From a virus (Duplodnaviria; Caudoviricetes), in the IMG/VR virus record IMGVR_UViG_3300037225_000815, positions 75 to 64,074 of that record: DNA of 64,000 bases; one strand, written 5' to 3'. The notes under the pieces are model-generated. The model was not told the DNA's origin. It ran no database searches and saw only the letters and a list, made by a program, of their open reading frames with translations. The stretch's first letter is position 1; each line of letters starts with the position of its first letter. The translations under genes were made by a program, and so were the position numbers. This document shows, in pieces, positions 16,477-64,000 of the stretch.

Positions 16477-16506
16477 ATTATATGTATAGTCCATATTATG
16501 CGTCAA
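16477..16506 (-). promoter_or_regulatory. sigma70-like promoter for portal
   Basis: TTGACG-18 nt-TATAAT upstream of the 16459 start. Confidence 0.65.
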
Positions 16507-40258: not shown

Positions 40259-40259
40259 G

Positions 40260-46300: not shown

Positions 46301-46311
46301 GGAGGCCAACC

Positions 46312-48674: not shown

Positions 48675-48714
48675 CCATCAAGACTGCATTCCCGAAAGGG
48701 GTGCAGTCCCTTTT

Positions 48715-48852
48715 GTGCTCAAGCGAGGGGGCAGGGGCCCCCGAGCATATCATAATGCTGGGCAGGGACCCAGCGTAATAATAGATGAATCCTTACGCAG
48801 TAAAGGATGAATGGGCTTGGGCGGAGCCCAAATAGCGGGCAGGGACCCGCCA
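48715..48852 (+). ncRNA. Candidate multi-hairpin sRNA with CAGGG(A/G) loops
   Basis: Begins at the purine of a hairpin element; four short GC stems, three with CAGGGR loops. Confidence 0.45.
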
Positions 48853-49246
48853 AAGTGAAACGTGTTTCCAGATAACGGCGAATTCACGTCAAGTTTGGGG
48901 AATATCGAACGGAAAGTGAGTCATTTCTCCAGGTTTGCACGGTTTCGCACGGAATCCCGTGATAAACACGTAATAACCCCCGTAATTTGCTCTGTTTGAG
49001 CGAATAACCTGGGGTAAACAGGTGTTTGAAAGGGCATAGGTCCTGTCCCGTGAGTAGGATCCTGATGGGTGTACCCTATAAGTATCCTGACCGGGAGGGA
49101 TGATGCCCGCCGATTGAGGGATGCCCGGAATGGCCCGCATATATGCGGGAATAAAGGGTGTAGGCTATTCATGTTTATCGGCATGCGACACGCATGCGAT
49201 TAAGGGATTGCGTACTTGTATGGACATCGCTATGAAAGGAGAACGT

Positions 49247-49507
49247 ATGAAGTTCAAAGTTGGCTGGTGGTACCGGCTCGTCGACACAATGCAATCGTTC
49301 AATGGCGACATAATGAACGACTACCAATGGCATAAGTGCGTTGAATCCGTTCCGGACGGCGAATGGACCGCCGTGAAGATGGAATCCGAATCCGGTACTC
49401 CGACAACAAGGCAATACGCATACGACGAAGCGCAGTACAACCCCGGAACACGGGATAAGAACACAGTTTCGTCGCCGGCACCGGAACTGAACGTCAGGGA
49501 AGCATAA
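49247..49507 (+). CDS. Hypothetical protein
   Basis: AAGGAG SD; start MKFKVGW. Confidence 0.55.
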   Translation: MKFKVGWWYRLVDTMQSFNGDIMNDYQWHKCVESVPDGEWTAVKMESESGTPTTRQYAYDEAQYNPGTRDKNTVSSPAPELNVREA

Positions 49508-49552
49508 CCTAACGCAGGGAATCGTCGAAATCTAAACACAAGGAGGCTCGCC

Positions 49553-49903
49553 ATGGCGAGACGAATACGTGAACGTAACAGCCAGTTCAACAAGCGGTTG
49601 GCCGGCGCATTCAACAGGTTCATCGCCCACCAGGCGGACAACCTGGGGAAAGTCGTCTATGACAACCACGAGATGGTCATAGCCATGGGGCTGTCGAACA
49701 TCATAGTGGGAATCGCAGTGTGCGTCCTGACCGGTGAGGTGACGATACTCTATGTCATCGCATCGATAGTGGCGAACACCCTACTGGACATCGGCGTCTC
49801 GTTCCTGTCGTCGCTCATCATGAGGGCGATAAGCGAGAGGCTCGGCAAGGAGGTGAAGCATGGACCGCAAGTCGACATTCAGCTCATACCTCAGTCGATA
49901 TGA
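49553..49903 (+). CDS. Membrane protein
   Basis: AAGGAGG SD; two TMs. Confidence 0.6.
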   Translation: MARRIRERNSQFNKRLAGAFNRFIAHQADNLGKVVYDNHEMVIAMGLSNIIVGIAVCVLTGEVTILYVIASIVANTLLDIGVSFLSSLIMRAISERLGKEVKHGPQVDIQLIPQSI

Positions 49904-50132
49904 CCTGCACTCGATGCAGGTCAGCGACGAGGGCAACACAATCTACGAGTTCGTCCTGAGGACGGACCGCAGGCGGTCCGTGTTCATCGAGGAAACGAAG
50001 TCCCTGATACGGGTATTGGACCCGCAGGTCAGTGACGACGTCGAAACAGTCAACGGATATGAGGACTCTATCCGTTACTTTGCGACGGTAGAACTGAAGA
50101 CGGGAAGCAGATGCCTGCGACAAACCTCGTAG
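49860..50132 (+). CDS. Hypothetical protein
   Basis: AAGGAGG SD. Confidence 0.55.
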   Translation: MDRKSTFSSYLSRYDLHSMQVSDEGNTIYEFVLRTDRRRSVFIEETKSLIRVLDPQVSDDVETVNGYEDSIRYFATVELKTGSRCLRQTS

Positions 50133-50758
50133 GCTTCGGCGACTACCGTGGCAGTCAATGGCGGGATGTACCCACGTCATACCTGATGTGGATACTCTCG
50201 CCCGAGTTCCATGACCACCACGACGCAAAGGTCAATGCCCGCATCGAACTGGCCCGTCGCACGGGGTTCGTACAGAACCACGGAAGCCCGAACAGCCAGC
50301 CAATCTATACCGCACAGGTTAGGGAGGCCGGCGACACATGGGAACCGGAGAGGAAGGAACCAGACATACTCACGGAGCGTGAGGTGTTCCTGATATGCAA
50401 ACTTGCATCGGAACGTTACATCACAAACTCCAATATGCATACATTCCCATCCGGAATGTCAGTACTAGACTGTCGCAGGAAATCGCTTAATGACACTTGC
50501 CATGAATGCTTCACATGGCCAGACGCAGAATCCATTGAAAGGATGATGTCGATAATGCGAGAGCTCAGCGACGACCTAGAAGCGAGAGCCCAAGTTGCAT
50601 CACCCCTCAGGTCACGTCGCAGACGGAACAACCGAGGAACGGAAGAGCTTGCCCAGGACATACTACGGGGCATGGGCGTAGACATATCTGAAGAGAACGA
50701 AGGCCAACCGGAAGAGACGCCAAACGACCCTTTCGGTGACCCAACCATCCCATTCTGA
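50111..50758 (+). CDS. DUF3820-like N-terminal domain protein with SSB-like acidic C-tail
   Basis: FGDYRG...DVPTSYLMWI; ends DPFGDPTIPF. Confidence 0.6.
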   Translation: MPATNLVGFGDYRGSQWRDVPTSYLMWILSPEFHDHHDAKVNARIELARRTGFVQNHGSPNSQPIYTAQVREAGDTWEPERKEPDILTEREVFLICKLASERYITNSNMHTFPSGMSVLDCRRKSLNDTCHECFTWPDAESIERMMSIMRELSDDLEARAQVASPLRSRRRRNNRGTEELAQDILRGMGVDISEENEGQPEETPNDPFGDPTIPF

Positions 50759-50768
50759 AGGAGGACAC

Positions 50769-50990
50769 ATGCTGTCAGACGTCGAAAGAGTAGCCATCGC
50801 AGTCAGGCGCATGGACGCTCTCATGCCTTCCTACTATAGGAAGGAAGCCAAATTCATCGAACTCCTGGAACAGGTATGCGGTTCAGACCGCTTTCTGCGA
50901 CAAGAAGTCGGCAGACACTATGGGGCACAGCCCAAAAGGAAGAGACTAGTCGAAGAGCACCTGACCTTCTTCGACTTAAACCCCCGATAG
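50769..50990 (+). CDS. Hypothetical protein
   Basis: AAGGAGG SD; start MLSDVER. Confidence 0.55.
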   Translation: MLSDVERVAIAVRRMDALMPSYYRKEAKFIELLEQVCGSDRFLRQEVGRHYGAQPKRKRLVEEHLTFFDLNPR

Positions 50991-51349
50991 GGTACGCCTA
51001 CGGCGGAAATGTATTGCACACGGGTTAAGGTGTGCGCCATTGTCCGCTTTCATAGGGTTGAGAACCCGCCCGGGACGGAAGAGCCGGCAATTCGACTCTG
51101 TCGTCCAGGGGCGAGACCCGTTTGTCGCAGGGCTCACGAGTGCAACGCAGTCATACCCAAGACCTTCAGTGAAACCAAGAGGCTACGCATGCTTGCTCAC
51201 TTGCATGCGCCTCGCAATCCGTCTGGGGCGCCCAGCCGGATTCCCTCCGGTTGCTCGACGCCTGCTGGCGTTCGCATCGCAGGCTACGCAAACATGGACT
51301 GCGCCGACCTGACGCAGTCCCTTTCAGATACCATACAAGGAGAATCATC

Positions 51350-51751
51350 ATGAAGAAGACATCATTGCTCATCGGAATCGTGGCAATCATCGCATGCATA
51401 TCTGCCTGCTCGAAGATGAATCCTATGGCGCCCAAGCTGGAATCGGCCCCGGCGACCAACTTCATCGTACCGTGGACGACAATGAATACTACCTACACAG
51501 TATCCAACTTCGTTACAAGACTGACCAATACGTCAGGTAATCTTACAACGTTGGATGTGAGAGTTATATTCGGATTCGCCGACGGAACAGAAGCTCAAGC
51601 GACGACAACCACGCCTGACCAATACGGTGTAATGATATCGTATGGAATGATAGGCTTATCATTCTACACGGACAACAACCGGAACGTGTACCAGAACTAC
51701 TTCCAGAGTGGTGGAGCAACTCCCACCTACTACAGGTACTCAATCAGGTAA
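51350..51751 (+). CDS. Lipoprotein
   Basis: MKK, hydrophobic stretch, then ISA-C lipobox; hairpin element upstream. Confidence 0.7.
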   Translation: MKKTSLLIGIVAIIACISACSKMNPMAPKLESAPATNFIVPWTTMNTTYTVSNFVTRLTNTSGNLTTLDVRVIFGFADGTEAQATTTTPDQYGVMISYGMIGLSFYTDNNRNVYQNYFQSGGATPTYYRYSIR

Positions 51752-52037
51752 CCACGAGACTGCGCCAGGAAGTTCCTGACGCAGTTGCTTTCGATTGTCA
51801 CAGATGGCAGGTGGGATTAGAAGCGTCCAGCCTTTAATGAGTGCGGGCAGACCCCGGCCAGCAAGTGGATATGGGCGGTAACAGTCCATGTCAAGTACTG
51901 CACGAAACCCAACGTGGTACGACTCCTAAGAGGGAGAGGATAAAGCGACCCGCTTCGGCGTAACAGCAAACCATTCATGGCAGTCATGCGGACTTGCTCC
52001 AAGCGATTGGCGCAGTCCCTTTTGAAAGGAGGCGCAG

Positions 52038-52241
52038 ATGCTTACACGATACAAGTCCATCAACCTGATGAAGGCGCAGGAAGTCCGGGCCAAAGCGCTG
52101 GCCAAACTCCTGGGCGCAGAAGTCAACAAGCGGATTGACGTCATCCTGTGGAATCCCCATCACCTGAAGAGCGCTTCGATGATGAAGGACATCACCAGGG
52201 TGGAGCTCATCAAATGCATCCAGAAGGAACTGGCGAAGTAA
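52038..52241 (+). CDS. Small protein
   Basis: Hairpin element plus AAGGAGG. Confidence 0.65.
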   Translation: MLTRYKSINLMKAQEVRAKALAKLLGAEVNKRIDVILWNPHHLKSASMMKDITRVELIKCIQKELAK

Positions 52242-52387
52242 ACCGACAAGGAGGATACATGATTGTACTACTGGCAGTAGCCGGAGTTATCATCTGGCTC
52301 GCACTGGAATGATTCAGTCATAGCGCACCCTCCTAAACTGCGTCGGGCACCATGCCTGACGCAGTCTTATCCGGACAAGGAGGCATC

Positions 52388-52558
52388 ATGAACCAAGGCG
52401 AATTGATAGAATCTCACAGGCAGGAAATCGAGACCGAGATTGCCTGGATGGAAACCACGCTCAAGCAGGCTCTATACCTGAAAGAGGAACTGGCCAAGTC
52501 AAGGGCACGTGTGGAATACCTCGAGGTCTCCATAATGGAACTTGTGTCAAAGACCTGA
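52388..52558 (+). CDS. Small coiled-coil protein
   Basis: Hairpin element plus AAGGAGG. Confidence 0.6.
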   Translation: MNQGELIESHRQEIETEIAWMETTLKQALYLKEELAKSRARVEYLEVSIMELVSKT

Positions 52559-52585
52559 CGCAGTTCCTTTTGCAAGGAGGACACC

Positions 52586-52864
52586 ATGATTACCACGAAA
52601 CTGGTGAATGACATTCATGCAGAAGGCTCGGCCATCAACCTGTTCAACCTGGGCTTCCTATACAAAGGGAGCACATGGGAGATATTCTGCATGTTCGAGA
52701 TGGCCAATTTGTTCCAACACAAGAACATCAGTGAACGCACACAGTGGCTCGTAACCGAAGACCAGAAAGTCTACCTGTCGCAGGACAGCGGGAACGGATA
52801 CCACTCGGAATGGGCGTACTTTGATGTCGAACACGAGACAGTGTTCATTACTGCGCCTGCATGA
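52586..52864 (+). CDS. Small protein
   Basis: Hairpin element plus AAGGAGG. Confidence 0.65.
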   Translation: MITTKLVNDIHAEGSAINLFNLGFLYKGSTWEIFCMFEMANLFQHKNISERTQWLVTEDQKVYLSQDSGNGYHSEWAYFDVEHETVFITAPA

Positions 52865-52909
52865 CGCAGTTCCTTTCGATTAATCCTATACCACAAGGAG
52901 GTAGAGCAA

Positions 52910-53320
52910 ATGGTTAATCAAATCGTCATACCGACGACATCGGAAGCGGTGTCGCTGAGATTCCGGCCGTACCATACGGCCAAGTCCGAGAAACTTCTGG
53001 GATACCTGGAAGTGACTGTGAAGAGCATGATGGGAAGCGTCCTGACTTCGTTCCCCGTCTTCACGTGGCAGGACCCCAAGTCCCAGGCCAAGCGCTACGG
53101 CGTCATCGGCAAGCTCGACTACAAGGTCGGGACGAAGGAACACTCCCACGGCTTCCTGTCACGGGACCTGAAAGCCTACATCAACCGGATACTCGAGGAG
53201 AACTCCTCGATGCTGACCGGTGAGTCCTCCGAGTTCGTCGAGACACATGAGGAGCATGTGCCCGCCCAGCAGGCGAGCGCAGAGTCAACCCCCGACGGAG
53301 AGTCGGAAAGAACCGCCTAA
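52910..53320 (+). CDS. Beta-rich protein with acidic tail (SpoVG/PC4-like guess)
   Basis: SLRFRPY...LLGYLEVTV; hairpin element plus AAGGAGG. Confidence 0.6.
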   Translation: MVNQIVIPTTSEAVSLRFRPYHTAKSEKLLGYLEVTVKSMMGSVLTSFPVFTWQDPKSQAKRYGVIGKLDYKVGTKEHSHGFLSRDLKAYINRILEENSSMLTGESSEFVETHEEHVPAQQASAESTPDGESERTA

Positions 53321-53394
53321 CCAACGACTGCGCCAGGAAGACCTGACGCAGTCTCCTTCGGAGAAATCGTTGATGCTTTAACACAGGAGGCACC

Positions 53395-53670
53395 ATGAAG
53401 TTCGACAAGGAGCTCATACTCAAGGTCAAAGCCGTGGTCTCTATGGAAATCAGGATACTGGATGTCGAAGGCGGAACGATGCTTGAGCAGAACCCCAACA
53501 AGGCCGGCTCGGTATATGCCGACATCTACAGGAACCATAGGGCATGGTTCATGTGCTGGTTCAAGCCGGACAACGGCGACCCATGGAGGCTGTTCACGCT
53601 CTCGCCCACCGGTGAGTTCGAGGAAATCGGTGGCGACAAGATATCCCGTCTCAAGGCAATCATGGGATGA
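53395..53670 (+). CDS. Small protein
   Basis: Hairpin element plus AGGAGG. Confidence 0.65.
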   Translation: MKFDKELILKVKAVVSMEIRILDVEGGTMLEQNPNKAGSVYADIYRNHRAWFMCWFKPDNGDPWRLFTLSPTGEFEEIGGDKISRLKAIMG

Positions 53671-54173
53671 TTCCCTCCCTATCTGCGCCAGGACACAAGG
53701 ATGTGCCTGACGCAGTCCCTTTTGGGACTGCGTATCCGTCAGACAGGGCCGTGATAGCATGTGTGGCGACATGCGTGTAATGATGAGTCTCTCTGTGCTA
53801 TAAACGTGCCGAGGCAGGCCAATAAGCCCTCGGTGGCTTGGACGCAGTTCCTTTTGCATCGTAGGAGAGGCCTACCTGTTGAATATGGTGAAAGTCCATA
53901 GCAGCCTGGGATACTCTCCCAGTGAACAAAAACGCTCCTGCGTCCTGAAGTGGGGGATACCCGCGACTGGACGCAGTTGTTTTCGGATAACCCACTAGGG
54001 CAGACCGAACTTATGTTCCCCTCCAAAGGACATAAGGGACTCTCGCCAATACGGAGTCGTCCGGGAAGAACCGAAACGCCCGGACCTGAAATATCCATCG
54101 GAAGTAGGACATGTACGGGGTAGTACTGGACGTCCCAGCTGCCCCGTCACTTTTACCTTAAGGAGGTAAACCG

Positions 54174-54482
54174 ATGCTAATAGAACCATCAAAAGGAACC
54201 GGTCGAGCAAGATGCAGATTGTGCCGCAAACTCATCAAAGAAGGTGCCCAACAGATACGTATAAAGATGGCATACGCCCAGGAATGCGCACACAGAAAGT
54301 GCATGACCAAGACAAGACGATTCGTATGCCAGGAGTGTAGTTTGAGGAATAGAACAACTCCATGTTTATTGGTTCTTAAAGGATGTGAACCTGATTCACT
54401 TGGGCCGAAACTTTGTCCCATTGATTCTGCGGGTTGGCCTCCCAAATGGGTCGAGATCAAGCTCAAACGGAGGAAATCATGA
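54174..54482 (+). CDS. PARP-type zinc-finger-like protein
   Basis: IEPSKGTGRARCRLCRKLIKEG...HRKC matches the zf-PARP pattern. Confidence 0.6.
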   Translation: MLIEPSKGTGRARCRLCRKLIKEGAQQIRIKMAYAQECAHRKCMTKTRRFVCQECSLRNRTTPCLLVLKGCEPDSLGPKLCPIDSAGWPPKWVEIKLKRRKS

Positions 54483-54871
54483 CCTATCCTGACCATATTA
54501 CAAAAGGATGGCTACGCGAACACCCGGACTGCATATTCGTATTCGGCGACAACATGGCCAGATTCGGACATGGCGGAGCGGCAGCCTTAAGGGACTTGCC
54601 AAACACCTACGGATTCATCACCCAGAAGTATCCGGACTCAAGGCCCGAATCCCATTATAAGCCAGAAGAATATACGCATATCCTGAACACGGAAACCGAA
54701 TTCCTCCGAGAACGCATTCTGTGTAATCCCGATCTTACCTTTATGATTACGAAGCTTGGCGGCGGACTCGCCAACATGTTCAATATCCGCCCGGCAATCA
54801 TCGAGAAGCTCAAGGAGTTCGAGGACACAGCCAAATACCCGAACGTGGTATTCATAGGGGGTAACACATGA
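54479..54871 (+). CDS. Macrodomain-like phage protein
   Basis: IFVFGDN..RFGHGGAA.LR..PN.YGFIT.K and KLGGGLA motifs. Confidence 0.6.
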   Translation: MTYPDHITKGWLREHPDCIFVFGDNMARFGHGGAAALRDLPNTYGFITQKYPDSRPESHYKPEEYTHILNTETEFLRERILCNPDLTFMITKLGGGLANMFNIRPAIIEKLKEFEDTAKYPNVVFIGGNT

Positions 54872-55113
54872 TTATCGGCGGACAGGAATTCCCCGACGTA
54901 TGCGTACCGGAATGCCGGTTGGGCAAGGAATACAGGGGACAGGGCGACCTATGCGACAGATGCCCGATCTTCTGCTGCACCCTGTACCAGGACGAACCCG
55001 GTGAGCCTCCCCACAGGATCCTGGAACCCGACGACTACCGTCCAGACTGGGCGAAAGCCTGGAAGGAATGGTTCGACGGAGGAATGGCAGGATATCCCAA
55101 GATAAGCCTATGA
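54868..55113 (+). CDS. Cys-rich small protein
   Basis: C...C, CDRCPIFCC. Confidence 0.55.
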   Translation: MIIGGQEFPDVCVPECRLGKEYRGQGDLCDRCPIFCCTLYQDEPGEPPHRILEPDDYRPDWAKAWKEWFDGGMAGYPKISL

Positions 55114-55126
55114 CAAGGAGAAGCCA

Positions 55127-55630
55127 GTGTCAAACGAGAATCTGAACATATGTTCCAAGTGCGGCGGAGAATGCTGCAAACTCTTCCCCGGGTTCTACTA
55201 CCCCGATGACTTCAGGAAGCGGAACGGAAGCCTAGACTGGGAAAGGATACTCAACCTCCTTACCTCGGGCCTGGCACAGATTGACAGGTGGGAAGATACC
55301 GAACCAGTCTACTTCCTGAGGCCAAAGATGGTAATGAAGAATGACAGCCATAACGGCATATTCTCATACCCATGGGGCGGGGACCCGGGCATCCATCTGA
55401 CGGAATACGGATGCTCGCTCAAGTACAAACAGCGCCCGTCGCAGTGCCGGCTCCTGGACCCGGTGAAGTGTGAGAAAGGCGACCAGCAGGACTCGGATCT
55501 CGGAAGGGAATCCGCAATGCGCGAATGGAAGAGGCTATCGAATAAGCTACAAGACATCGGCAAGGAAGCCGGAAGGAGAAGAGATGTCACAACAAAGGGA
55601 CATAGCGGTCCTCAAGAAGTTGCTTTATGA
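55127..55630 (+). CDS. YkgJ-like CxxCxxCC metal-cluster protein
   Basis: CSKCGGECCK...GCSL...RPSQCR. Confidence 0.7.
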   Translation: MSNENLNICSKCGGECCKLFPGFYYPDDFRKRNGSLDWERILNLLTSGLAQIDRWEDTEPVYFLRPKMVMKNDSHNGIFSYPWGGDPGIHLTEYGCSLKYKQRPSQCRLLDPVKCEKGDQQDSDLGRESAMREWKRLSNKLQDIGKEAGRRRDVTTKGHSGPQEVAL

Positions 55631-55781
55631 CCGCCGACAGGCTATCATCAACGACAGAACAGTGATATCCAGCGTCGAGGCGGACGACGTTATCGACGCC
55701 CTGACAAGCGCAATATCAAGCATACGGCGAAACACTCGCATTACGTGTCCGGAATGCGACGCCGAAATCGACCTGGACTAA
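55584..55781 (+). CDS. Small protein
   Basis: Start MSQQRD; CPEC near the C-terminus. Confidence 0.5.
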   Translation: MSQQRDIAVLKKLLYDRRQAIINDRTVISSVEADDVIDALTSAISSIRRNTRITCPECDAEIDLD

Positions 55782-55792
55782 AGGAGAACAAC

Positions 55793-56314
55793 ATGGCGAA
55801 ACTCAAATTCGAACACGATGTCAGATGCACGGCATGTGGAGGAACTGGACTATACCGCGGAATGGCGGAACGCGACGGAGCGACGGTCGTCTGCTACAGA
55901 TGCGAAGGAACGGGTAAGGAGCATATCGTACATGAGTACGAACCGTTCAATGGCAGGAAACTCGACCCGACCATCAAGCGCGTCTACCAGACTGCCGGAG
56001 GATATTGTATCACCGACAAAGACGTCACGCATGCTGGGCAGGTAATCCACTTCTCGAAGGCCGGAATCTCCTACCAAGAATGGATGGACGGCGGTAAACC
56101 ACTGCCCATAAGGGAACTCCATTGCCCAGTCATACACTTCGGACAGGGAACACCAATCGGAGAATGGTTCAAGCACCACCATGACCACGAGACATTCAAG
56201 TCAGACCTACATGAATGTGAAATGTGCTTCAGCCCATGCTCAGAGAAGCATCGGGAACAGTACTGGGCGTTCTACGACCAGCATGAAGCCAAATTCCTGA
56301 AACTGAAGGAGTGA
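55793..56314 (+). CDS. DnaJ-type Zn-finger protein
   Basis: CTACGGTG...CYRCEGTG; AAGGAG SD. Confidence 0.7.
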   Translation: MAKLKFEHDVRCTACGGTGLYRGMAERDGATVVCYRCEGTGKEHIVHEYEPFNGRKLDPTIKRVYQTAGGYCITDKDVTHAGQVIHFSKAGISYQEWMDGGKPLPIRELHCPVIHFGQGTPIGEWFKHHHDHETFKSDLHECEMCFSPCSEKHREQYWAFYDQHEAKFLKLKE

Positions 56315-56592
56315 ACATGCCAGAATACCTCGGAGACCGAACAATAGCCGAGAAAGAGCATGAAGACTCAATCCAGGAACAGGGGTTCATGGACGAGTTC
56401 GAATGCATTCATGGTGTACCAATCGAAGAGGACTGCCCGGAATGCTTCCTCGACAACTTCGGGGACATGGCCGGGAACAATCACGTCCTCAAGGAGATGA
56501 TATCCGATATCGAGATCCCTAGTCCCGATACAAATCCCAAGAGTAAGGAGGGGCAATGCGGAGATGCATCTCCAAGCAGGCGAGACGGATAA
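56311..56592 (+). CDS. Acidic hypothetical protein
   Basis: CIHG....CPEC. Confidence 0.5.
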   Translation: MNMPEYLGDRTIAEKEHEDSIQEQGFMDEFECIHGVPIEEDCPECFLDNFGDMAGNNHVLKEMISDIEIPSPDTNPKSKEGQCGDASPSRRDG

Positions 56593-56683
56593 TCGCCAGA
56601 ATTCTCAGCTAGGTCATTGGCTGCGCCGGGGTAACCTGACGCAGTCATCCTTGGCAGGTTGGTTCCCCAAGGAGCAACCACAC

Positions 56684-57166
56684 ATGAACGATACCATCAA
56701 GATTCGCAAGGAGAGCTATGAGGAGCTCAAGCGGTCCGACGTGAGCAAGCACATCTCCATTGGCTTCAGGTCATACGAAGATGACATGAAGTTCGGCTAT
56801 GCCACCGTGACCATCACCACCCCCATCGGCTCGGTCAAACTCAGACTCACCGTCTGGAAGAACAAGCAGGACGCCAGCAAACCGCGCCTGGGCTGGTACC
56901 AGACCTTCGACGGCTACACGACTTCGGTCGTGAAACCCAAGGAAGGCGCTGACCCCGCCAAGAACAAGTTCCGTCTCCCGACGGAATCAGCCGTGGATTC
57001 CAGCATCCACGACATCATCGACGCGATGATTATCGACGCTATCGCCGGGACCAAGAAGAAGAAGGCCCCGCCGAAGAAGACACCGAAATCGGAGGAGCAG
57101 TCTGGAAAGCCCGCTCCGGCGAAATCGGAAACCGAACAACTCGAGACCGACGCCCGTACGGCGTAA
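56684..57166 (+). CDS. Beta-rich protein, paralogue of 52910
   Basis: SIGFRSY...FGYATVTI; hairpin element plus AAGGAG. Confidence 0.6.
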   Translation: MNDTIKIRKESYEELKRSDVSKHISIGFRSYEDDMKFGYATVTITTPIGSVKLRLTVWKNKQDASKPRLGWYQTFDGYTTSVVKPKEGADPAKNKFRLPTESAVDSSIHDIIDAMIIDAIAGTKKKKAPPKKTPKSEEQSGKPAPAKSETEQLETDARTA

Positions 57167-57529
57167 GAGAACAGAGGAACTAAGACCTGCCAGGACTGTG
57201 TACGCAAGTGCGCAGTTCCTTTTGGATAATGTACGGCTGTTTAGCCCACACTAAACAGAAATTCATATTCATTGGTATGCACAGGAGGCATGAATGAAAG
57301 TGTTGAAGAGCTACTTAATAACCGACCTATCGTTCGAGGACAAGGAAAGGATATTCCAGGAGGCCAAGGCCGCCGGACACCAAGTGTATGTGACAACAAG
57401 GGACGCCACGCAATACATGGAAATAAGGGAGGGAACCAATGTCACTGGAAGCGACAAGAAAGCTGATACTTGACATCTGGAAGAAGGCACGACTGGACAT
57501 AGCAGCAAGACGCAAGAAGGAGAGGGCAC

Positions 57530-57781
57530 ATGGAAGAAAGACCAAAGCTAAAGCCAATCAGGCTGAATAAGCCGCTGTTCGACATGGTATCCTCGGGTAT
57601 GCCGGGGCAGACCGACAGCATGTCCGAATGGATGGAAGGCTTCAAGGAATGCTACATCTGCGGCAAACCGCACAAGAGGAAACATAAGACGTGCTCCGAG
57701 AGGTGCGAACGGGCGTACCTCGGAGACAGGGAGCTACGGGCCCAGATCTTAAGCGAGGTGAAAGCCAAGGAGGACAGATGA
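57530..57781 (+). CDS. Zn-ribbon protein
   Basis: CYICGKP...TCSERC. Confidence 0.6.
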   Translation: MEERPKLKPIRLNKPLFDMVSSGMPGQTDSMSEWMEGFKECYICGKPHKRKHKTCSERCERAYLGDRELRAQILSEVKAKEDR

Positions 57782-58059
57782 TAAAGGACAACGCAAGCCT
57801 GGCTGAAATCGTGAATAGCCTGCCGAAGGAACAACAGGAGGAGTTCCATAAGAGCGGACTGCACGGTGTCATCAGCAAGTTCGGCATCCAGTCGGAGGAC
57901 AGGAAGATTCTCAGGTGCGACATAGGGAACCTGATAATCGCCGACGACGTCAAGACATTGGTACACATCCCTATCAAGATAGACCTATTCAAGCCGGTGT
58001 TGCTTGTGGGGGCGTTCAAATGGAGGCTCTTCGACGACAACCTAGAAATCCACATCTAA
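57778..58059 (+). CDS. Hypothetical protein
   Basis: AAGGAGG SD; start MIKDNAS. Confidence 0.55.
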   Translation: MIKDNASLAEIVNSLPKEQQEEFHKSGLHGVISKFGIQSEDRKILRCDIGNLIIADDVKTLVHIPIKIDLFKPVLLVGAFKWRLFDDNLEIHI

Positions 58060-58075
58060 TACTGGGAGAATAACT

Positions 58076-61000
58076 ATGCACGTCCAAGTTGACGGAACGG
58101 TTATCAACATATCCCGGATGAAGCTCTCGGACAGGACGCTCGTAACTGTCGAGAGTACCGGGAACATATCGAGGAAGTTCGAACTTCCAATAATCGAGTA
58201 TCCCCTGATGGTGTCCAGGAATACGGTGGAATTCGCGCCAATTCACATGGACCCGTCGGAGCTCATCGTCATCAACAACCACATCACTGTCGACAAGAAC
58301 GGGATTATCAGGCTCAACGACGGCTCTTTCGAGAGCGCAAGCATCAAGAATGACGAGAAGGCCAAGAGGCTTCTGAAGAGGACGCTGATAGACCATCCGA
58401 TATGGGTGGACCAGTTCAGGGCACTGACTGGGAAAGCGACCGACAAGCACATCCTCTCCCTGGCTGCCGTAAGGCAGATATTCAGGAAGAGGTCGAGAAT
58501 ACCCAGGATCCAGAACGTATTCCAGGGGGAACTGAGGGTATGGCGCATCGTCGACAGGGAAGAGCTCATCTACCAGACCATCGTCAAGAAGGTCTACCAG
58601 ATGGTGTTCGAGAACCTGACTGAAAGCAGGGCGAAGTACGCCATCAGGAAGCTGAACATCTCCAAACAGGAGGCCATCTTCAACCTCATCCAGGCCAAGA
58701 CTGCGTCCCAGAAGGTCGAGATACCGTGGTCATCGCAGATGATACCGCTCCTCGAAGAGGCCTCCGGACTGGTCCCGAACGACACTCTACAGAGCGAGAA
58801 AGCCGGACTGGTAGTCGCGAAAGGAACGGTCGAGAAGAACGGAAGACGGTACTCATACGCCCAGAGCGTAAACCCATGGTTTGAGCACTGCTCCACCAAT
58901 AGGCAGGTGGTCGCCAAGTATGTCACCCAGATATGCATGCTGACCAACCACAAATGGAAGGAGATGCCCAAGCTGCTGGCCGCCCGGATGGCCTACATGG
59001 GATTCACTCCAGAGGACGGCTGCGTCATATCAGCATCGGCAGCGGAGAAGTTCAGGTGTATGCAGGTCGACATCGACCACATCATCGTGAAGAATCCCAA
59101 ACTGGAAGTGAGTTCCTGCGGGAACTTCGACCCGTACGACTACTCGGGTATCATGAGGACAAACGCCCCGTTCATCAACAGGGGAGTCCTGGGTACCTAT
59201 AACGACAGGAAGAAGGAGCTGAGGAGCAAGTACCATGGGATCATCACCAAGCTCGAAGTAGTACCTACCGAGGTGGACGACGAGTTCATGGTAGCGGTCG
59301 AGACCACATCGGTCATGAAGCTCGAGAAGGGCGACAAGCTGGCAGACCTCCATGGCAACAAGGTCACTATCGCAGAGATAATGGAACCGGGCGAGATGCC
59401 CCGTACCATCGATGGCTGGCCGGTCGACATCATAATCCCTCCGTACCTGGGCAAGCGGGCGTCAGCCAGTAGGCTGAAGGAAGAGGAAGACTCGCTACCG
59501 GGAAGGAACATACTGACCCTGGTCGACCCGGTCAACGACACATGCTACCCGAACATCAACGTCGGCAAGGTAGCTTACATCCGAATCTCCCAGCATGCCA
59601 GGAAGAAGCTCAACTACTCCAACAAGACCAAGACCAACTACATCGGCATCACTCCGAGGGGCTACGGCCTCTACACGTATGCCGACGCGATGTACCATAT
59701 GGAAGCCGTCGGAGCGGAAGGGCTCATCAGGGAGATCCTCAACCAGACGTTCAGCACCAACTCCCCTGAGCTCCTGAACGAACACCTCAAATGCATGGGA
59801 TTCGAGCTCGTAAAGGGCAGGATTACCGGCACCACGAAGACCCCGTTCTTCGAGGCCCCTGACAACGACATCGTCATCAACAAGGTGGTTGACCCGCGGA
59901 AGCTTCCGGAGGACCTGACAGGGACAGTTGTGGACCCCAGATTGCTCCATAACCACAGTTGGCTCCGCATTCCCCAGGGTATCGAGCTGACTTTCCACGC
60001 GCTCACCAGCGCCCTCAGGGCCCGTTCATACGACCACGAATACGTCGAGCACGTCCTTACGGAGGACTACTCGTGGATGTCCAAGTACGGGATAGGCTTC
60101 AAGCACCTGATGTCGGACGGCAAGAAGCAGATGTTCCTAAGGATACCGCCCGGCCTGCGGACTTGGCGGACACCGACCGACCTGACTACGCTGTCCGATA
60201 TCCAGCAGCAGCTGAACCAGATTCTGGTGCAGTTCCGCGGCTACGAATCGCATGCGGGCTCTCCCGCGGTATTCGGATTCATGCGGCGTATCAACCAGAT
60301 GATGAACAAGCTCATCGACAGCGTCTGCTCCAGGATATTCACCAAGAGCGGACTGCTGAGGAACACCATCCATCCAAGGGTCAAGTACGCGATGAACGCA
60401 GTGCTTGGGAGCAATCCCAGGCTGGAACTTGACATGTGCGAAATCCCATACGAAGCCGTCTACAGCTATCTGGAAGACGAGGATTGGAAGCGAGCATACA
60501 ACCTCCAGGACATCGAGGACCCGAGCATCGGCGAGATCAACCTGGCGTTCGAGAAGATGGACGCAAGGTGCCTGGTCAAGAGGAATCCGGTCCATCAGAT
60601 AAGGAACATCCTGGGACTACGGGTCAGAGTCCATAACGGACAGACCATCAACATCAACCCGGCGATCGTGAAGATGCTGGACGGCGACTTCGACGGCGAT
60701 ACGGGGATAGCCCTGATGCCGGTTACGAAGGAAGCCCAGGAAGACATCAAGAGGTTCGGCATCGAGAAGCATCTCAGCCACCTGATTACCAACAAGGACC
60801 TGGAAGGATTCACCGTCAAGGACACAATCCGGGAGAACGACCTGTCCATACAGAGGTGGTACTTCCACAACTCCGGGATATCCGAGGACAAGAAGGACAT
60901 CCGGAAGAGGTATGGCGAGAAGAAGGCTACGATGTTCCTCAAACTGTACAACGCCGACCTGACACAGAAGGAGCTGTTCGAGATGCAGGTGGACTCCGCA

Positions 61001-61564
61001 GTGGAGTTCAGCTACATGAAGAGTGCGACAGCGAACGCCGGCAACATCGGCAACCTCCTGAGGAACCTCATGTTCAGGCCGTACGGACGGCTGGGAATCA
61101 AGATAGCCAGCCATGTCTACCACGTACTGGCGCAGGCCGGACTGGACTGCAAGAACTCGATGACAGACAGGAAGGACCTGGAGAAGGCGTTCCGGGCGTT
61201 CAGGGATTTCAAGATGGACCATACGACGTTCGCATCAAGCCTCTCGGGCTTCTTCAAGCCGAGCATCATAGAGGCAGTCTGGAAGACGCTGACGAAGAAC
61301 GGCAGATGGGTCGGCAACATCACAAGAGTAATAGCCGAACGCATGCCGGTAGCCCACATCGTCAACTCCGGGAAGATTCAGGACCTCTACCTTGCCGCGC
61401 TGAACACTGAGCGTAACGTGTCCGAAGGCAGTTTCGTCGAGAAGCTGCTGACGTACATCGAACCGCGCCAGGACTTCATCATCAAGAAGGGCGTCGAAGA
61501 GGAAGAGGATACTATCGTCCTGTCATCCGAGATAGAGGTGACGGAAGAGGATCTGGAAGAGTAA
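58076..61564 (+). CDS. Compact fused beta-beta' DNA-directed RNA polymerase
   Basis: Beta motifs GFTPEDGCVISAS and GDKLADLHGNKVTI...MP..IDGWPVDIIIPP. Beta' motifs KSGLLRNTIHPRV, LVKRNPVH and INPAIVKMLDGDFDGD (DFDGD at 60686-60700). Confidence 0.88.
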   Translation: MHVQVDGTVINISRMKLSDRTLVTVESTGNISRKFELPIIEYPLMVSRNTVEFAPIHMDPSELIVINNHITVDKNGIIRLNDGSFESASIKNDEKAKRLLKRTLIDHPIWVDQFRALTGKATDKHILSLAAVRQIFRKRSRIPRIQNVFQGELRVWRIVDREELIYQTIVKKVYQMVFENLTESRAKYAIRKLNISKQEAIFNLIQAKTASQKVEIPWSSQMIPLLEEASGLVPNDTLQSEKAGLVVAKGTVEKNGRRYSYAQSVNPWFEHCSTNRQVVAKYVTQICMLTNHKWKEMPKLLAARMAYMGFTPEDGCVISASAAEKFRCMQVDIDHIIVKNPKLEVSSCGNFDPYDYSGIMRTNAPFINRGVLGTYNDRKKELRSKYHGIITKLEVVPTEVDDEFMVAVETTSVMKLEKGDKLADLHGNKVTIAEIMEPGEMPRTIDGWPVDIIIPPYLGKRASASRLKEEEDSLPGRNILTLVDPVNDTCYPNINVGKVAYIRISQHARKKLNYSNKTKTNYIGITPRGYGLYTYADAMYHMEAVGAEGLIREILNQTFSTNSPELLNEHLKCMGFELVKGRITGTTKTPFFEAPDNDIVINKVVDPRKLPEDLTGTVVDPRLLHNHSWLRIPQGIELTFHALTSALRARSYDHEYVEHVLTEDYSWMSKYGIGFKHLMSDGKKQMFLRIPPGLRTWRTPTDLTTLSDIQQQLNQILVQFRGYESHAGSPAVFGFMRRINQMMNKLIDSVCSRIFTKSGLLRNTIHPRVKYAMNAVLGSNPRLELDMCEIPYEAVYSYLEDEDWKRAYNLQDIEDPSIGEINLAFEKMDARCLVKRNPVHQIRNILGLRVRVHNGQTININPAIVKMLDGDFDGDTGIALMPVTKEAQEDIKRFGIEKHLSHLITNKDLEGFTVKDTIRENDLSIQRWYFHNSGISEDKKDIRKRYGEKKATMFLKLYNADLTQKELFEMQVDSAVEFSYMKSATANAGNIGNLLRNLMFRPYGRLGIKIASHVYHVLAQAGLDCKNSMTDRKDLEKAFRAFRDFKMDHTTFASSLSGFFKPSIIEAVWKTLTKNGRWVGNITRVIAERMPVAHIVNSGKIQDLYLAALNTERNVSEGSFVEKLLTYIEPRQDFIIKKGVEEEEDTIVLSSEIEVTEEDLEE

Positions 61565-61660
61565 ACGATTGTCCAAATGATTAGACAGCGTGTGGGGGAA
61601 GTTCCTCGCACGCTGTTTGTTTACCATCCGTTCATGGTTGTTGGCATATCAGGAGGGAAG

Positions 61661-61915
61661 ATGTTCAAGCCAGGAGATGAAGTTGAAGTCATGGACATGG
61701 AAGGAGTATGGCATAAGACAATAGTCAGCAGCGTCAACACAAACAGAGACAATGAGACTGTATACTGGGTCAAGCGCGGAGACTGGGGTGTCAACAGCCT
61801 ACCATTTCCGGGCGCCAACAAAGGTAATACCGACGTAGCCCATTCCAAATTCATCCGACTCTACCCGCTTACTCATACGGGCGATATGTTCAACACAGAA
61901 GTGAGGGAAGCATGA
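61661..61915 (+). CDS. Small SH3/Tudor-like protein
   Basis: MFKPGDEVEV...W; AGGAGG SD. Confidence 0.55.
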   Translation: MFKPGDEVEVMDMEGVWHKTIVSSVNTNRDNETVYWVKRGDWGVNSLPFPGANKGNTDVAHSKFIRLYPLTHTGDMFNTEVREA

Positions 61916-62250
61916 GCATAATAGGACAACTGCAATCAGTGATAGAGAAGCTCAAGGCACAAGTTATAGACCTGAAGGCCGATAACGCCACGGCACGCGA
62001 GGTAATCGAGAGCCTGTGTGGACAGTTTGCAATGCCGCTGGACAACCCTCCAAGGATAACAACTGCGGGATACAGCGACTTGAAGGCAGCATTCATGTTC
62101 CTTGGTTGGTCAGACCCGCATCCAATACCTGAACGAGGATGCCAATGGAAAGGATGCAAGAAGACCGCGACATGCGGGACTCCCTACAAGAAGGGATATC
62201 TCCGCGTCTGCGGAGACCATTTCAGTAGGATCAACAAGAAACGCAAATGA
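61912..62250 (+). CDS. Hypothetical protein
   Basis: Coiled N-terminus; CQWKGC...CGDH. Confidence 0.55.
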   Translation: MSIIGQLQSVIEKLKAQVIDLKADNATAREVIESLCGQFAMPLDNPPRITTAGYSDLKAAFMFLGWSDPHPIPERGCQWKGCKKTATCGTPYKKGYLRVCGDHFSRINKKRK

Positions 62251-62528
62251 CACCTAATGGAAGGAGAAACAGGATGGAAAGCAAGAGATTCCGTATCCTA
62301 CTGGACAAGGTGGAGAACATCTTCTATATCCAGGAGAGGAAATGGAGATGGTTCTTCGGCTGGAACGACTACTGGAAGACACATGTACTGCGCGGCCTCC
62401 AGGAAGAACTGGACATCGAATGCAGGGCGGAATTCAGTTCGGTCAGGGCCGCCAAGGAATACATACGGAAGCTCAAACTCAAGGAGAACGCAGCACAATT
62501 CGGCGACATGATCATCTGCGAACTATAG
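62247..62528 (+). CDS. Hypothetical protein
   Basis: FYIQERKWRWFFGW; the start may instead be the M at 62274. Confidence 0.55.
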   Translation: MTPNGRRNRMESKRFRILLDKVENIFYIQERKWRWFFGWNDYWKTHVLRGLQEELDIECRAEFSSVRAAKEYIRKLKLKENAAQFGDMIICEL

Positions 62529-62550
62529 AGGACTACAAATAACCAACTCA

Positions 62551-62754
62551 ATGGAGGTAACTGTGAAGTTGAGAACAGACCATGCAAAAGAACGAAGGGA
62601 ACGCACACTCAAGCGCCTCAAAGAGCAACTTGCATCGGGGAAGAAACCCTGGAAGAACATCAATGTCAAGGACGGCGCCACGCAGGAGGACCTGACTGAA
62701 GCCGACATCAAGAGGATCAAGAAGGAGATCGCGATCCTGGAAACACGGGTATAA
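62551..62754 (+). CDS. Small basic protein
   Basis: The start may instead be GTG at 62563 after GGAGG. Confidence 0.5.
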   Translation: MEVTVKLRTDHAKERRERTLKRLKEQLASGKKPWKNINVKDGATQEDLTEADIKRIKKEIAILETRV

Positions 62755-62763
62755 GGAGCAACC

Positions 62764-63111
62764 ATGAGAAAGATCAAGGAATTCGTCATCGAGAAGGGGA
62801 TGATCCTCAAGCGCAAGTCATGGGATATGAACCAGGCGGTAATCGTCCTGGAGAACCCCAGGATGGAGCCGAACAGGGAGAGCAAGAAGCCCACACATGA
62901 CTACATCTTCCCCTCCAACAACTACCGCGACAGGAACGAGAAGGAGCCGGCGACCCGCTGGTTCTTCGCCCACCCATGGTGCGGGGACAAATGGGTACGG
63001 GTAACCCCTCCCAAGGGCGGCAAGAAGAAGGAGAAGAGGAAGACGGCACCGACACCGGGAATCGGCGAGACGCTCGTCAAGTCGCTCGAAGCGACAGCCA
63101 CCCAGGCATAA
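62764..63111 (+). CDS. Hypothetical protein
   Basis: AAGGAG SD. Confidence 0.55.
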   Translation: MRKIKEFVIEKGMILKRKSWDMNQAVIVLENPRMEPNRESKKPTHDYIFPSNNYRDRNEKEPATRWFFAHPWCGDKWVRVTPPKGGKKKEKRKTAPTPGIGETLVKSLEATATQA

Positions 63112-63131
63112 CTAAATTCCCCCTATTTATT

Positions 63132-63172
63132 GGACCCGGAGGGAGCCCGCTAGGGAATCCGCTCCGGGTCTT
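63132..63172 (+). terminator. Terminator-like hairpin
   Basis: GGACCCGGAG...CTCCGGGTCT-TT. Confidence 0.5.
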
Positions 63173-63181
63173 TGGAATACT

Positions 63182-63541
63182 ATGAAACCGCTCTATACCA
63201 TACCGAAACAGTCCGGGAACGGACTGACCGCGTCACAAACAGCTCTGCTGAATGGTCTCCTTGAACATGGGGACATAATCAACACAGCAAGGAGCAGGCG
63301 TCCCAATCCAAGCATTACTTGGCCGGACCAGCCGATACATCCGACGATGTTCCCAGTAGCCAGGTTCATGAACGGAGAGCAGATCCCATTTGAACCAATC
63401 GGCGACGCGGAAAGGCTGGCGAAACAGGTGGAAACGCGACGAACCTGGCGGGGGATATTGGGTATATTGATACTGTTAGCTGGCTCCACGGCTCTCATAC
63501 TCGTCATAGCCAAATCGGTACATCTGCACATTGGAGGATAG
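63182..63541 (+). CDS. Protein with C-terminal TM
   Basis: ORF with a hydrophobic C-terminus. Confidence 0.5.
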   Translation: MKPLYTIPKQSGNGLTASQTALLNGLLEHGDIINTARSRRPNPSITWPDQPIHPTMFPVARFMNGEQIPFEPIGDAERLAKQVETRRTWRGILGILILLAGSTALILVIAKSVHLHIGG

Positions 63542-63820
63542 ATGAAGAAGGTATGGACGTACTACAAGCTAGTCCCATGCAACTTCCTGTCATTCGACAT
63601 CCGGGTCGATATCTCATGGATACCGACCATAAAGGAAGCGCTGAAGACCGCGAAGAAGCTGATGCGCGCCTACAACAACAAGTACCCGTCCGATTCAACC
63701 GCATTCATATCGGTCGACGAGCATACGCGTTCATCATTAGCAGCCATCAGCTATACGGAGAATGGCCTGGTACAGCAGAACCTGGTCAACAAGAACGACC
63801 TTGAGGAGAAGATAATATGA
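63542..63820 (+). CDS. Hypothetical protein
   Basis: GGAGG SD. Confidence 0.55.
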   Translation: MKKVWTYYKLVPCNFLSFDIRVDISWIPTIKEALKTAKKLMRAYNNKYPSDSTAFISVDEHTRSSLAAISYTENGLVQQNLVNKNDLEEKII

Positions 63821-64000
63821 ACATCGAGAAAGTGATAGCTTTCCTGGAGACATGCAAACGGCCGCACTACTACTGCGACGACTGTTGGTATTCATGCCCG
63901 AAACACCCGGAAGGGTGCTGTGACGACAGCCTACCAAGCAAAGAATGCACCTGCGGCGCCGACGAATTCAACAGGAAGGTCGACGACTTCATAGCCAAAC
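63817..64000 (+). CDS. Cys-rich protein, truncated at the window end
   Basis: ATGA overlap; MNIEKVIAFLETCKRPHYYCDDCWYSCP. Confidence 0.5.
   Translation, partial: MNIEKVIAFLETCKRPHYYCDDCWYSCPKHPEGCCDDSLPSKECTCGADEFNRKVDDFIAK

Follow-up and report, generated by a model that had tools for sequence, protein, structure and literature searches.

The locus and the fused gene

We analyzed a 64,000-nucleotide (nt) stretch of DNA from a virus of the Caudoviricetes (hereafter, the window), which corresponds to the IMG/VR record IMGVR_UViG_3300037225_000815 of 64,074 bases minus 74; CheckV puts its completeness at 27%, that is, 73% of the genome is estimated to be missing. Among the sequencing runs listed for this DNA, there is no RNA run, and the single run that contains it in full is a DNA run, possibly its source. 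The gene P0001, at 58076..61564 on the plus strand, encodes a protein of 1162 amino acids (aa) that, judged by its domain content, catalytic residues, predicted fold and family membership, is almost certainly a single-chain, two-barrel DNA-dependent RNA polymerase (RNAP) of the cellular type, with the equivalents of beta and beta' fused in one polypeptide. The open reading frame (ORF) comprises 1162 codons from the ATG, with zero internal stops and with the stop codon within these coordinates; the start is preceded by GGGAG, 8 nt upstream, and a gap of 16 nt separates it from the previous small ORF.

At E <= 1, P0001 matches two Pfam families in all: RNA_pol_Rpb2_6 (aa 374-456, E 1.1e-11, 44.9 bits with a curated cut-off of 23.4) and RNA_pol_Rpb1_2 (aa 832-892, E 5.9e-7, 30.3 bits with a curated cut-off of 25.3). 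When sequences from the Protein Data Bank (PDB) were searched with phmmer, residues 823-874 of Thermus beta aligned with aa 406-457 (E 8e-6), covering the GDK...HGNKG segment, and the catalytic region of several beta' chains aligned with aa 744-893. The acidic residue of the beta barrel is D314 of an EDG motif (59015..59017), where the family profile described below reads heDgivvSe opposite YEDAIIMSE in beta, and the active-site lysines K421 and K429 are contained in GDKLADLHGNKV (aa 419-430, 59330..59365), opposite GDKLANRHGNKG of Thermus. The beta' barrel is represented by the R-x-P...H motif, RNPVH (aa 836-840, 60581..60595), inside the Rpb1_2 match, and by the metal-binding loop DGDFDGD (aa 869-875, 60680..60700) with D871, D873 and D875.

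An earlier interpretation of this DNA without database searches (hereafter, the sequence-only reading) had recognized beta-type and beta'-type catalytic motifs in one uninterrupted ORF and had proposed a minimal beta::beta' fusion; the ORF call, Pfam and phmmer bear this out, and the gene is real and apparently complete. The unusual motif variants pointed out in that reading are there as well, namely HGNKV in place of HGNKG, within aa 419-430, and DGDFDGD instead of the usual NADFDGD, at aa 869-875. The claim that the protein is well under half the combined length of RpoB and RpoC is slightly generous in its 'well': P0001 is indeed under half, at 47% of mycobacterial beta plus beta' (1169 + 1317 aa) and about 42% of the Escherichia coli pair, with a length of 1407 aa for E. 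coli beta'.

Predicted structure

The AlphaFold2 model of P0001, built from a 29-row alignment, has a mean predicted local distance difference test (pLDDT) score of 72.3 and a predicted template modeling (pTM) score of 0.75; aa 230-1130 are mostly confident, and pLDDT falls below 50 at aa 1-63, 104-162, 642-681 and 1131-1162. The N-terminal region (aa 1-194, 58076..58657), which takes the place of the beta N-terminal lobes, has pLDDT mostly below 50 and is without a Pfam match. It is followed by a beta/Rpb2-like module with the lysine-bearing barrel (aa 195-565, 58658..59770), by a junction of the two halves that is partly disordered in the model (aa 566-600, 59771..59875; pLDDT < 50 at aa 588-599) and by a beta'/Rpb1-like module (aa 579-1129, 59810..61462), both modules having structural as well as profile matches to the respective subunit. 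In a structural search against representatives, aa 195-565 matched plastid beta with Z 17.3, chain C of the phiKZ non-virion RNAP (nvRNAP; 7ogp_C) with Z 16.2 and chain C of the AR9 enzyme (7s00_C) with Z 16.1; the match to vaccinia Rpo132 has Z 15.6 over 340 aa, the root-mean-square deviation being 2.9 (VIA-align). The other half, aa 579-1129, matched Mycobacterium tuberculosis beta' (6edt_D) with Z 15.0, with 515 residues aligned over chain positions 7-1257, and Rpb1 of RNA polymerase II with Z 13.8. Structure prediction for P0001 alone, proposed along with the sequence-only reading, thus yields two halves that match beta (Z 15-17) and beta' (Z 15.0).

The known single-chain enzymes give lower scores with the whole P0001 chain: Z 13.7 for QDE-1 (438 residues aligned), 9.1 for P74-26 gp62, 8.0 for crAss gp66 and 7.4 for P23-45 gp96; isolated domains of the double-psi beta-barrel (DPBB) type matched aa 770-900 of the model with Z 5-7. 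The RNA-dependent RNA polymerase (RdRP) family PF05183 had no match in P0001 at E <= 1. By both sequence and fold, P0001 is nearer to beta/beta' than to the YonO/QDE-1-type enzymes.

Several elements of the beta' half can be assigned tentatively. A helical hairpin ahead of the catalytic barrel (aa 708-755, 60197..60340; model helices 708-725 and 731-755) is a candidate equivalent of the clamp helices: profile positions 715-904 lie opposite beta' 262-506 (9n9p_D), and we take the beta' stretch around 260-310 to be the clamp helices, the coiled coil on which sigma docks. Past the barrel, the model contains a 40-residue helix (aa 964-1003, 60965..61084; MKSATANAGNIGNLLRNL), a candidate bridge helix that carries MKSATANAGNIG and the invariant residues K982 and G989. 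The next model helix, 1005-1027, with the invariant Y1015 and K1026, is within the trigger-loop-like LAQ.GLD.K helices; the names bridge helix and trigger loop, as applied to aa 964-1003 and the later helices, are tentative and given by analogy with beta'/Rpb1 motifs. The protein ends with an acidic disordered tail (aa 1131-1162, 61466..61561; EEEEDT...EEDLEE) that is absent in a relative with 31% identity and partly kept in one with 63% identity.

The family of fused enzymes

A profile made from P0001 and two relatives was scored exhaustively against 1.84 billion representatives and matched 2622 proteins at E <= 1e-3, 374 at E <= 1e-10 and 28 at E <= 1e-30. Against the PDB, the family profile matched 192 distinct sequences at E <= 1e-5, and the best 60 of these 192 are all beta or beta', headed by Bacillus subtilis beta (E 2.8e-23) and the AR9 nvRNAP (E 3.1e-20). 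The alignment with beta spans 264-301 profile positions (residues 764-1053/1098 of the 1193 in B. subtilis beta), and that with beta' spans at most 240 positions, with E about 1e-15 to 1e-16, starting at beta' residue ~179 or 262; the sequence similarity to both subunits extends beyond the DxDxD loop. The beta/beta' signals in P0001 are far beyond chance. From the points where the profile alignment starts on beta and beta', it follows that some 600 N-terminal residues of beta are replaced by about 280 and that the first ~180 residues of beta' are gone.

Among the 150 matches listed, proteins of 1075-1271 aa were taken as a 29-member family set; P0112 and P0121, of similar length but with canonical motifs and lower rank, were excluded. 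The 29 members fall into two groups, a tighter one of 20 (34-46% identity) and a loose one (22-42% identity) that consists of P0001, P0003, P0005, P0006, P0008, P0010 and P0012, P0028 and P0033 standing at its margin. Shorter proteins are also among these 150 matches: the alignment of some, of about 650 aa, is confined to the first half of the profile and that of others, of about 550 aa, to the second half; therefore, split versions of the minimal enzyme exist as well.

The motifs that seem unusual in P0001 are the norm in its family: DGDxDGD is found in 16 of the 29 fused members and NADFDGD in two, and a residue other than glycine follows the lysine in 17 of the 22 members that match GDK..HGNK. 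Twenty residues are invariant over the 29 members, including D314, K421, K429, R461, P838, H840, D871, D873, G874, D875, K982, G989, Y1015 and K1026, and W156 is nearly so. According to Ruprich-Robert and Thuriaux (PMC2919709), eight residues are invariant in all two-barrel polymerases, namely the three aspartates of DxDxD, the arginine and proline of R-x-P, and an aspartate and two lysines of the second barrel. All eight are present in P0001 (D871, D873, D875, R836, P838, D314, K421 and K429), seven of them in 29/29 members and R836 in at least 90%. In Pfam searches with the 29 members, Rpb2_6 was detected in 27, Rpb1_2 in 14 and other families in none.

INPHARED genomes gave no tblastn match to P0001 at E <= 1e-5 (34 records, with barrel-sized matches, at E <= 1) and no megablast match to window positions 50000-64000, nor did the INPHARED search with the subfamily-B member P0029 give a match. 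A scan of IMG/VR with alignment A1 returned just two loci, both of the 31%-identical relative, and no locus was found there with the subfamily-B alignment A5. In Atlas, Rpb2_6 and Rpb1_2 occur together in clusters of phage proteins (59 and 87 members, about 1066-1095 aa long), one of which is auto-named 'putative DNA-directed RNA polymerase'. In the literature, we found no description of or experiment on the family of 1075-1271-aa proteins, nor on its company with a second polymerase and a sigma factor; the catalogue of 23 families in PMC10770324 may include it.

Proteins of other sizes came up as well. Many metagenome contigs of 74-121 kb (L040-L065 and others) contain a single frame of ~1830-1900 codons, stop to stop, that matches the family profile with E about 1e-20; these frames represent a larger fused beta-beta' class with canonical NADFDGD/GRHGNKG motifs. 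Further size classes in the exhaustive search are about 830-940, 1450-1700 and 1900-2500 aa.

An intron-like insert in a close relative

In the closest relative (59-63% identical), on a contig in a metagenome-assembled genome (MAG), two ORFs, encoding 895 and 295 aa, take the place of the single gene. The split point is in the metal-binding loop, between ...KVFD and GDFDGD... (L090 7614-8036). The insert of about 420 nt is without a long ORF, starts after U and ends in G, and has a folding z score of -4.55, with none of 100 shuffles folding as well. It looks like a small self-splicing intron, a class of inserts that usually settle in strongly constrained sites; because Rfam gave no family for the gene region of this relative at E <= 0.01, it remains a candidate.

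Search for partner subunits

Three records were searched for additional RNAP subunits: that of the window, the complete 234-kb genome G001, whose fused enzyme is the 31%-identical relative, and the 120-kb record G002. The families Rpb1_1, Rpb1_5, Rpb2_7 and the alpha-type RNA_pol_L were found in none of the three, all 14 control genomes being positive, and Rpb2_6 and Rpb1_2 scored above the cut-off in the fused gene only. At the level of Pfam, the missing beta/beta' fragments that the sequence-only reading had suggested looking for were thus not found in the window record, G001 or G002; in the window record and the complete G001, no further beta, beta' or alpha piece was detected, omega not having been included in the search.

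The window and G001 are related beyond the polymerase: window genes at 2083-29245 are syntenic with G001 74,295-98,898, and the layout is alike, in that the arm leading away from the virion arm begins with a 912-aa gene similar to P0004 (see below), the fused gene being ~53 kb further along. A location of the gene at a physical genome end was considered and dropped: the 'terminal repeat' of G001 is a mere overlap of 114 nt, and its coordinate 1 is therefore arbitrary.

Genome setting

The window consists of two diverging arms that meet near 41.6 kb, where the AT skew flips. The minus-strand arm includes the genes for the tail sheath (4256-6760), the portal (14825-16459) and the large terminase (18787-20544); the plus-strand arm starts with P0004, which encodes 888 aa, and continues with many small genes through to the polymerase gene. 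Some 29 kb separate P0001 from the virion module, which is encoded on the other strand, and the neighbors of P0001 are small non-structural genes; in G001 the fused gene is likewise in the non-structural arm. A hairpin-free leader (57219..58075, plus strand) with small ORFs, such as 57530-57781 and 57691-58059, is packed against P0001; judging by the spacing, these ORFs and P0001 probably form one transcription unit.

Upstream of the leader, conserved hairpins of one family punctuate the plus arm; their pattern is CTGYG...CGCAG and then T(T/C)CCTTTYG. A relaxed pattern finds 18 copies at 45001-57218, and none in the virion arm, mostly 8-13 nt past a stop codon and 33-57 nt ahead of the next start; the strict pattern finds 14 in the plus arm plus one at 40007, and one in G001. 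The last copy (57193..57218, plus strand; CTGYG...CGCAG, then TTCCTTTTG) is 858 nt before the ATG of P0001, in agreement with the ~850 bp given in the sequence-only reading, and there are no copies from 57216 to the window end. These hairpins may act as terminators, processing sites or hairpin promoters specific to this phage. Downstream of P0001, 18 nt past the stop codon, there is another hairpin, with a perfect-looking 16-bp stem (61582..61619, plus strand), that overlaps the called start of the ORF 61577-61915.

Promoter-like sites were sought with a strict sigma-70-type pattern, TTGA[CT][AGT]-N16-18-TA[TC]A[AT]T, written after some of the sites had been seen. The window contains five matches (14794-14822, 16477-16506, 24605-24633, 34345-34373 and 40230-40258) against 0.34 +/- 0.64 in 100 dinucleotide shuffles, none of which reached five. 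One of the five overlaps the called start of 33574-34353 and one is inside the called ORF 39620-40372. The best site, TTGACG-18-TATAAT (16477..16506, minus strand), is 18 nt before the start of the portal gene, and its counterpart in G001 (84720-84748; L023 4720-4748) occupies the corresponding short gap ahead of the portal gene. A generic promoter scan was not clearly above shuffles (17 vs 13.5 +/- 3.3, 21 vs 14.9 +/- 4.2, 26 vs 20.8 +/- 4.8 and 7 vs 3.8 +/- 1.9), and no promoter-marking 10-mer shared with other intergenic regions was found in 57216-57300 or before P0004.

A second polymerase candidate and a sigma factor

P0004 (41613..44279, plus strand), the first gene of the plus arm, probably encodes a second, very divergent two-barrel polymerase, as its motifs suggest (QRSPH ... 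ADCDGD): R485-x-P487 and D523/D525/G526/D527 are kept in P0004 and four relatives, including the 912-aa G001 gene (L004 169-2907, minus strand). The similarity to known enzymes is weak. In an hhalign comparison with the fused family, just the R-x-P...DxDGD barrel was aligned (probability 67%, E 5e-5), the best PDB profile match is the tape-measure polymerase gp96 of P23-45 (E 0.038), and Rpb1_2 remains below the cut-off (E 6e-4). The nearest named Atlas clusters carry the RdRP family PF05183 (feature score 0.90, template modeling score 0.40-0.48) and serve as a lead only; the fold predicted from a 5-sequence alignment (pLDDT 41.8) is too poor for use. With the invariant barrel and these RdRP/YonO-like clusters, the label YonO-like given to P0004 in the sequence-only reading is fair, and it is reasonable to regard P0001, beside P0004, as the second, independent RNAP of this genome.

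The sigma factor named in the same reading is of the sigma-70 family and has regions 2 to 4: P0155 (29558..30514, minus strand; 318 aa), encoded just upstream of the virion module, matches Sigma70_r2 (E 2.7e-7) and PHROG 351 (E 6.7e-26) and aligns with SigA regions 2-4. It is 24-29% identical to sigma factors of Bacillus, Synechococcus and Microcystis phages, which are not known to have an RNAP of their own. In the complete G001, searches with Pfam region 2, with PHROG 351 and with a hidden Markov model of P0155 and its relatives revealed no sigma gene; there, the fused enzyme therefore does not need a phage sigma. Neither a sigma gene nor a close P0004-like gene was found in the flanks of 52 metagenome loci, one weak A4 match (E 4e-4) within the large ORF of L069 aside; these negatives carry little weight, and for the closest fused relatives (L031-L035) the contigs span just 6-34 kb. 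Sigma matches in the MAG with the 59%-identical relative are weak (23-33% identity), and none is on the contig of that relative, where the position of a syntenic sigma would be past the end. A complex prediction for the beta' half (aa 575-1130) with sigma scored 0.00 and was run without controls, so that it counts neither for nor against an interaction.

The region between the sigma gene and a tRNA cluster (30511-34353 and 36199-36906, minus strand) encodes a group-1 glycosyltransferase, two S-adenosylmethionine (SAM)-methyltransferase-like proteins and a NUMOD3-bearing homing endonuclease; the cluster itself (37174-37676, minus strand) consists of six tRNA genes, Tyr-GTA, Ala-TGC, Asp-GTC, Gly-TCC and two Ser-GCT.

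Comparison with known systems

P0001 shares with cellular beta/beta' (Rpb2/Rpb1) both double-psi barrels, all catalytic residues, Rpb2_6 and Rpb1_2, structural matches at Z 15-17 and, tentatively, the bridge- and trigger-like elements; whereas these subunits are two chains totaling about 2500-2750 aa, the 1162 aa of P0001 form a single one. The nvRNAPs of PhiKZ and AR9 are likewise phage-encoded, trimmed beta/beta' enzymes without alpha or omega, and their beta C-terminal subunits are among the best matches of P0001. However, as two reviews describe them (PMC7598289, PMC7824862), these phages have four beta/beta' pieces plus a fifth specificity subunit, in virion and non-virion sets, whereas P0001 is one uninterrupted gene and the complete G001 has no second beta/beta' set above the cut-off.

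Fused two-barrel polymerases are already a known kind, of which the 1075-1271-aa family is a variant for which we found no bench study. Known examples are Orf6 of the killer plasmid pGKL2 (PMC2919709), YonO (PMC5467207), crAss gp66 (bioRxiv 2020.03.07.982082) and P23-45 gp64 and gp96 (PMC10770324); the latter source also mentions 'derivatives with fused DPBB domains' within the cellular clade ('clade 1'), and repeated fusions are noted in PMC7281927. The pGKL2 Orf6, an Rpb2::Rpb1 fusion of 982 aa, is similar to P0001 in the order of the halves, in size and in the deletion of about half of each parent (PMC2919709), but it comes from a yeast cytoplasmic plasmid and is of presumed eukaryotic origin, the likeness being one of architecture and size alone. 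The clade of YonO, QDE-1, crAss gp66 and P23-45 gp64-gp96 also combines both barrels in one chain, and its phage members are described as acting without the host core (PMC5467207, PMC10770324); P0001 scores Z 13.7, 9.1, 8.0 and 7.4 with such enzymes against 15-17 with beta/beta', and it is P0004 that resembles this clade.

The cultured Salmonella myovirus Arash (gp206 / gp216 / gp10) offers a further parallel: its gp206 is a fusion of beta into beta' of 1525 aa (Rpb2_3, Rpb2_6, Rpb1_1, Rpb1_2), and the phage also encodes a sigma factor. Unlike P0001, gp206 ends after the catalytic barrel, with the rest of beta' separate, and the subunits are virion-borne. The gp206 gene (L084 4078-8655) is annotated 'RNA polymerase subunit beta' and really encodes beta and, fused to it, beta' from its N terminus as far as the catalytic barrel; the counterpart in Vibrio phage D69 (L085 4069-8652) is a similar fusion minus Rpb2_3, and proteins of this kind are annotated 'RNA polymerase subunit beta' or 'hypothetical'.

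Proposed role and alternatives

The activity of P0001, its timing, its non-virion status, its sigma independence and the genes it reads we infer as follows. The beta-like half (aa ~195-565) would supply the barrel with D314, K421 and K429, and the beta'-like half (aa ~579-1129) the barrel with R836-x-P838 and D871/D873/D875 together with the clamp-helix-like hairpin, the bridge-like helix and the trigger-loop-like helices, the covalent fusion standing in, presumably, for assembly on an alpha dimer. The gene would be expressed later than the early genes with their hairpins, as part of the hairpin-free unit at the distal end of the non-structural arm; because the gene is in that arm, behind the last hairpin and in a tight unit with small genes, the product most likely is a non-virion protein. 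P0001 would give the phage transcription that is independent of the host core enzyme and would most likely work without a sigma-70-type factor, via its own or another phage-specific determinant, as in the characterized phage two-barrel polymerases, while the likeliest task of the phage sigma is to steer the host core to the virion arm with its sigma-70-type promoters. Reviews treat phage polymerases and phage sigmas as alternative strategies and report a sigma for the jumbo phages that have no polymerase of their own and none for those that do (PMC7598289, PMC7824862); among cultured phages, Arash and D69 are counter-examples. We give the entire chain of steps, a host-core-independent, single-chain non-virion core with its own or another phage specificity factor plus a sigma that redirects the host core, about an even chance.

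Several observations weigh against this proposal, and most of them bear on whether the fused core works with sigma. The sequence-only reading, pairing the YonO-like enzyme, the fused core and a sigma factor, had suggested a relay in which the first polymerase expresses the second, which then drives the virion arm; in a broader form, a self-contained holoenzyme of the fused core with the phage sigma, or with the host sigma in relatives, would read the virion arm, having been expressed earlier by the host enzyme or the 888-aa polymerase. All five strict sigma-70-type sites are on the minus strand of the minus, virion-side arm, three of them 18-26 nt before gene starts, and the sigma gene is directly upstream of the virion module; yet, the strict pattern was drawn up after some of these sites had been seen. 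G001 has 18 strict sites against 6.0 +/- 2.5 in shuffles, near-consensus (TTGACA-N17-TATAAT), in both arms and oriented with the coding strands; nevertheless, it retains the enzyme without a detectable sigma. The candidate clamp-helix region of beta' is kept in P0001 at the sequence level, with the profile aligning through it and a helical hairpin there in the model, although P0001 lacks, or has other sequence in place of, the ~180 N-terminal residues of beta' and most of the beta lobes; the first ~220 residues of P0001 are poorly modeled. A sigma-using phage core also has a plausible precedent in Arash and D69, both with the 1525-aa type of beta::beta'-N fusion: Sigma70_r2 proteins are encoded in these two but not in Rhizobium phage RHph_Y65, that is, in two of the three cultured RNAP-encoding phages checked, and beta, beta' and sigma were all detected in the virion proteome of Arash, as reported in PMC10585845. 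With sigma accompanying RNAP in these two phages and in Arash virions, a sigma-dependent fused core keeps some probability. Against it, no characterized phage two-barrel polymerase uses a sigma-70-family factor, PhiKZ and AR9 employing an unrelated fifth subunit (PMC7598289). Of the relay, the second polymerase, the sigma factor and the strict sites in the virion arm stand, but G001 speaks against an obligatory pairing, keeping both polymerases and the promoters without a detected sigma. On balance, we regard the self-contained holoenzyme as possible but doubtful. Its specific version, with P0001 as a minimal core that uses a sigma-70-family factor (its own or, in relatives, that of the host) at TTGAC-N17/18-TATAAT promoters of the virion arm, in a phage with a YonO-like polymerase for the earlier, hairpin-punctuated genes, appears rather unlikely. 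The proposal is also exposed on the side of subunit composition, given that a partner subunit could lie in the missing 73% of the genome or be too divergent for Pfam in G001.

The non-virion status is challenged by Arash, too, in that a fused beta-type phage subunit can be virion-borne there: gp206 is the most abundant protein in virion mass spectrometry (PMC10585845), and many phages with two polymerases package one (PMC10770324, PMC7598289). If packaged, P0001 would enter the cell with the DNA and read the first genes, the way that virion polymerases do in N4, crAss-like phages, phiKZ, P23-45 and probably Arash. However, the gp206 gene adjoins the portal gene and its similarity to P0001 is marginal (tblastn E 0.02, aa 300-456), whereas the fused gene, here and in G001, is far from the virion module (~29 kb in the window), on the opposite strand and among small non-structural neighbors, which makes packaging improbable. 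Finally, P0001 might not be a transcriptase at all but rather a primer-making or RNA-templated polymerase, like QDE-1, or an inactive relic, given that two-barrel enzymes can switch template, that QDE-1 aligns over 438 residues and that the presence of near-consensus promoters in the two G001 arms may point to transcription by the host enzyme. This seems very improbable: the catalytic residues are kept over 29 divergent members, the protein is closest to the DNA-dependent beta/beta' in sequence and fold and does not match PF05183, and the intron-like insert of the close relative is exactly in the metal-binding loop.

Implications

Because one genome encodes the fused core along with a divergent second polymerase and a complete sigma-70-family factor, the question of whether sigma can serve a phage core can be tested directly here. 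If P0001 does use sigma, it would be the first case of bacterial-type, sigma-directed initiation by a single-chain RNA polymerase that lacks alpha. More generally, the protein would be a tractable object for structure work, for the study of early polymerase evolution and, possibly, for orthogonal expression systems. Against the five subunits and about 400 kDa of cell-type RNA polymerases, a single chain of 130 kDa with closer ties to beta/beta' than the YonO or crAss enzymes have would show how little the transcription of DNA needs.

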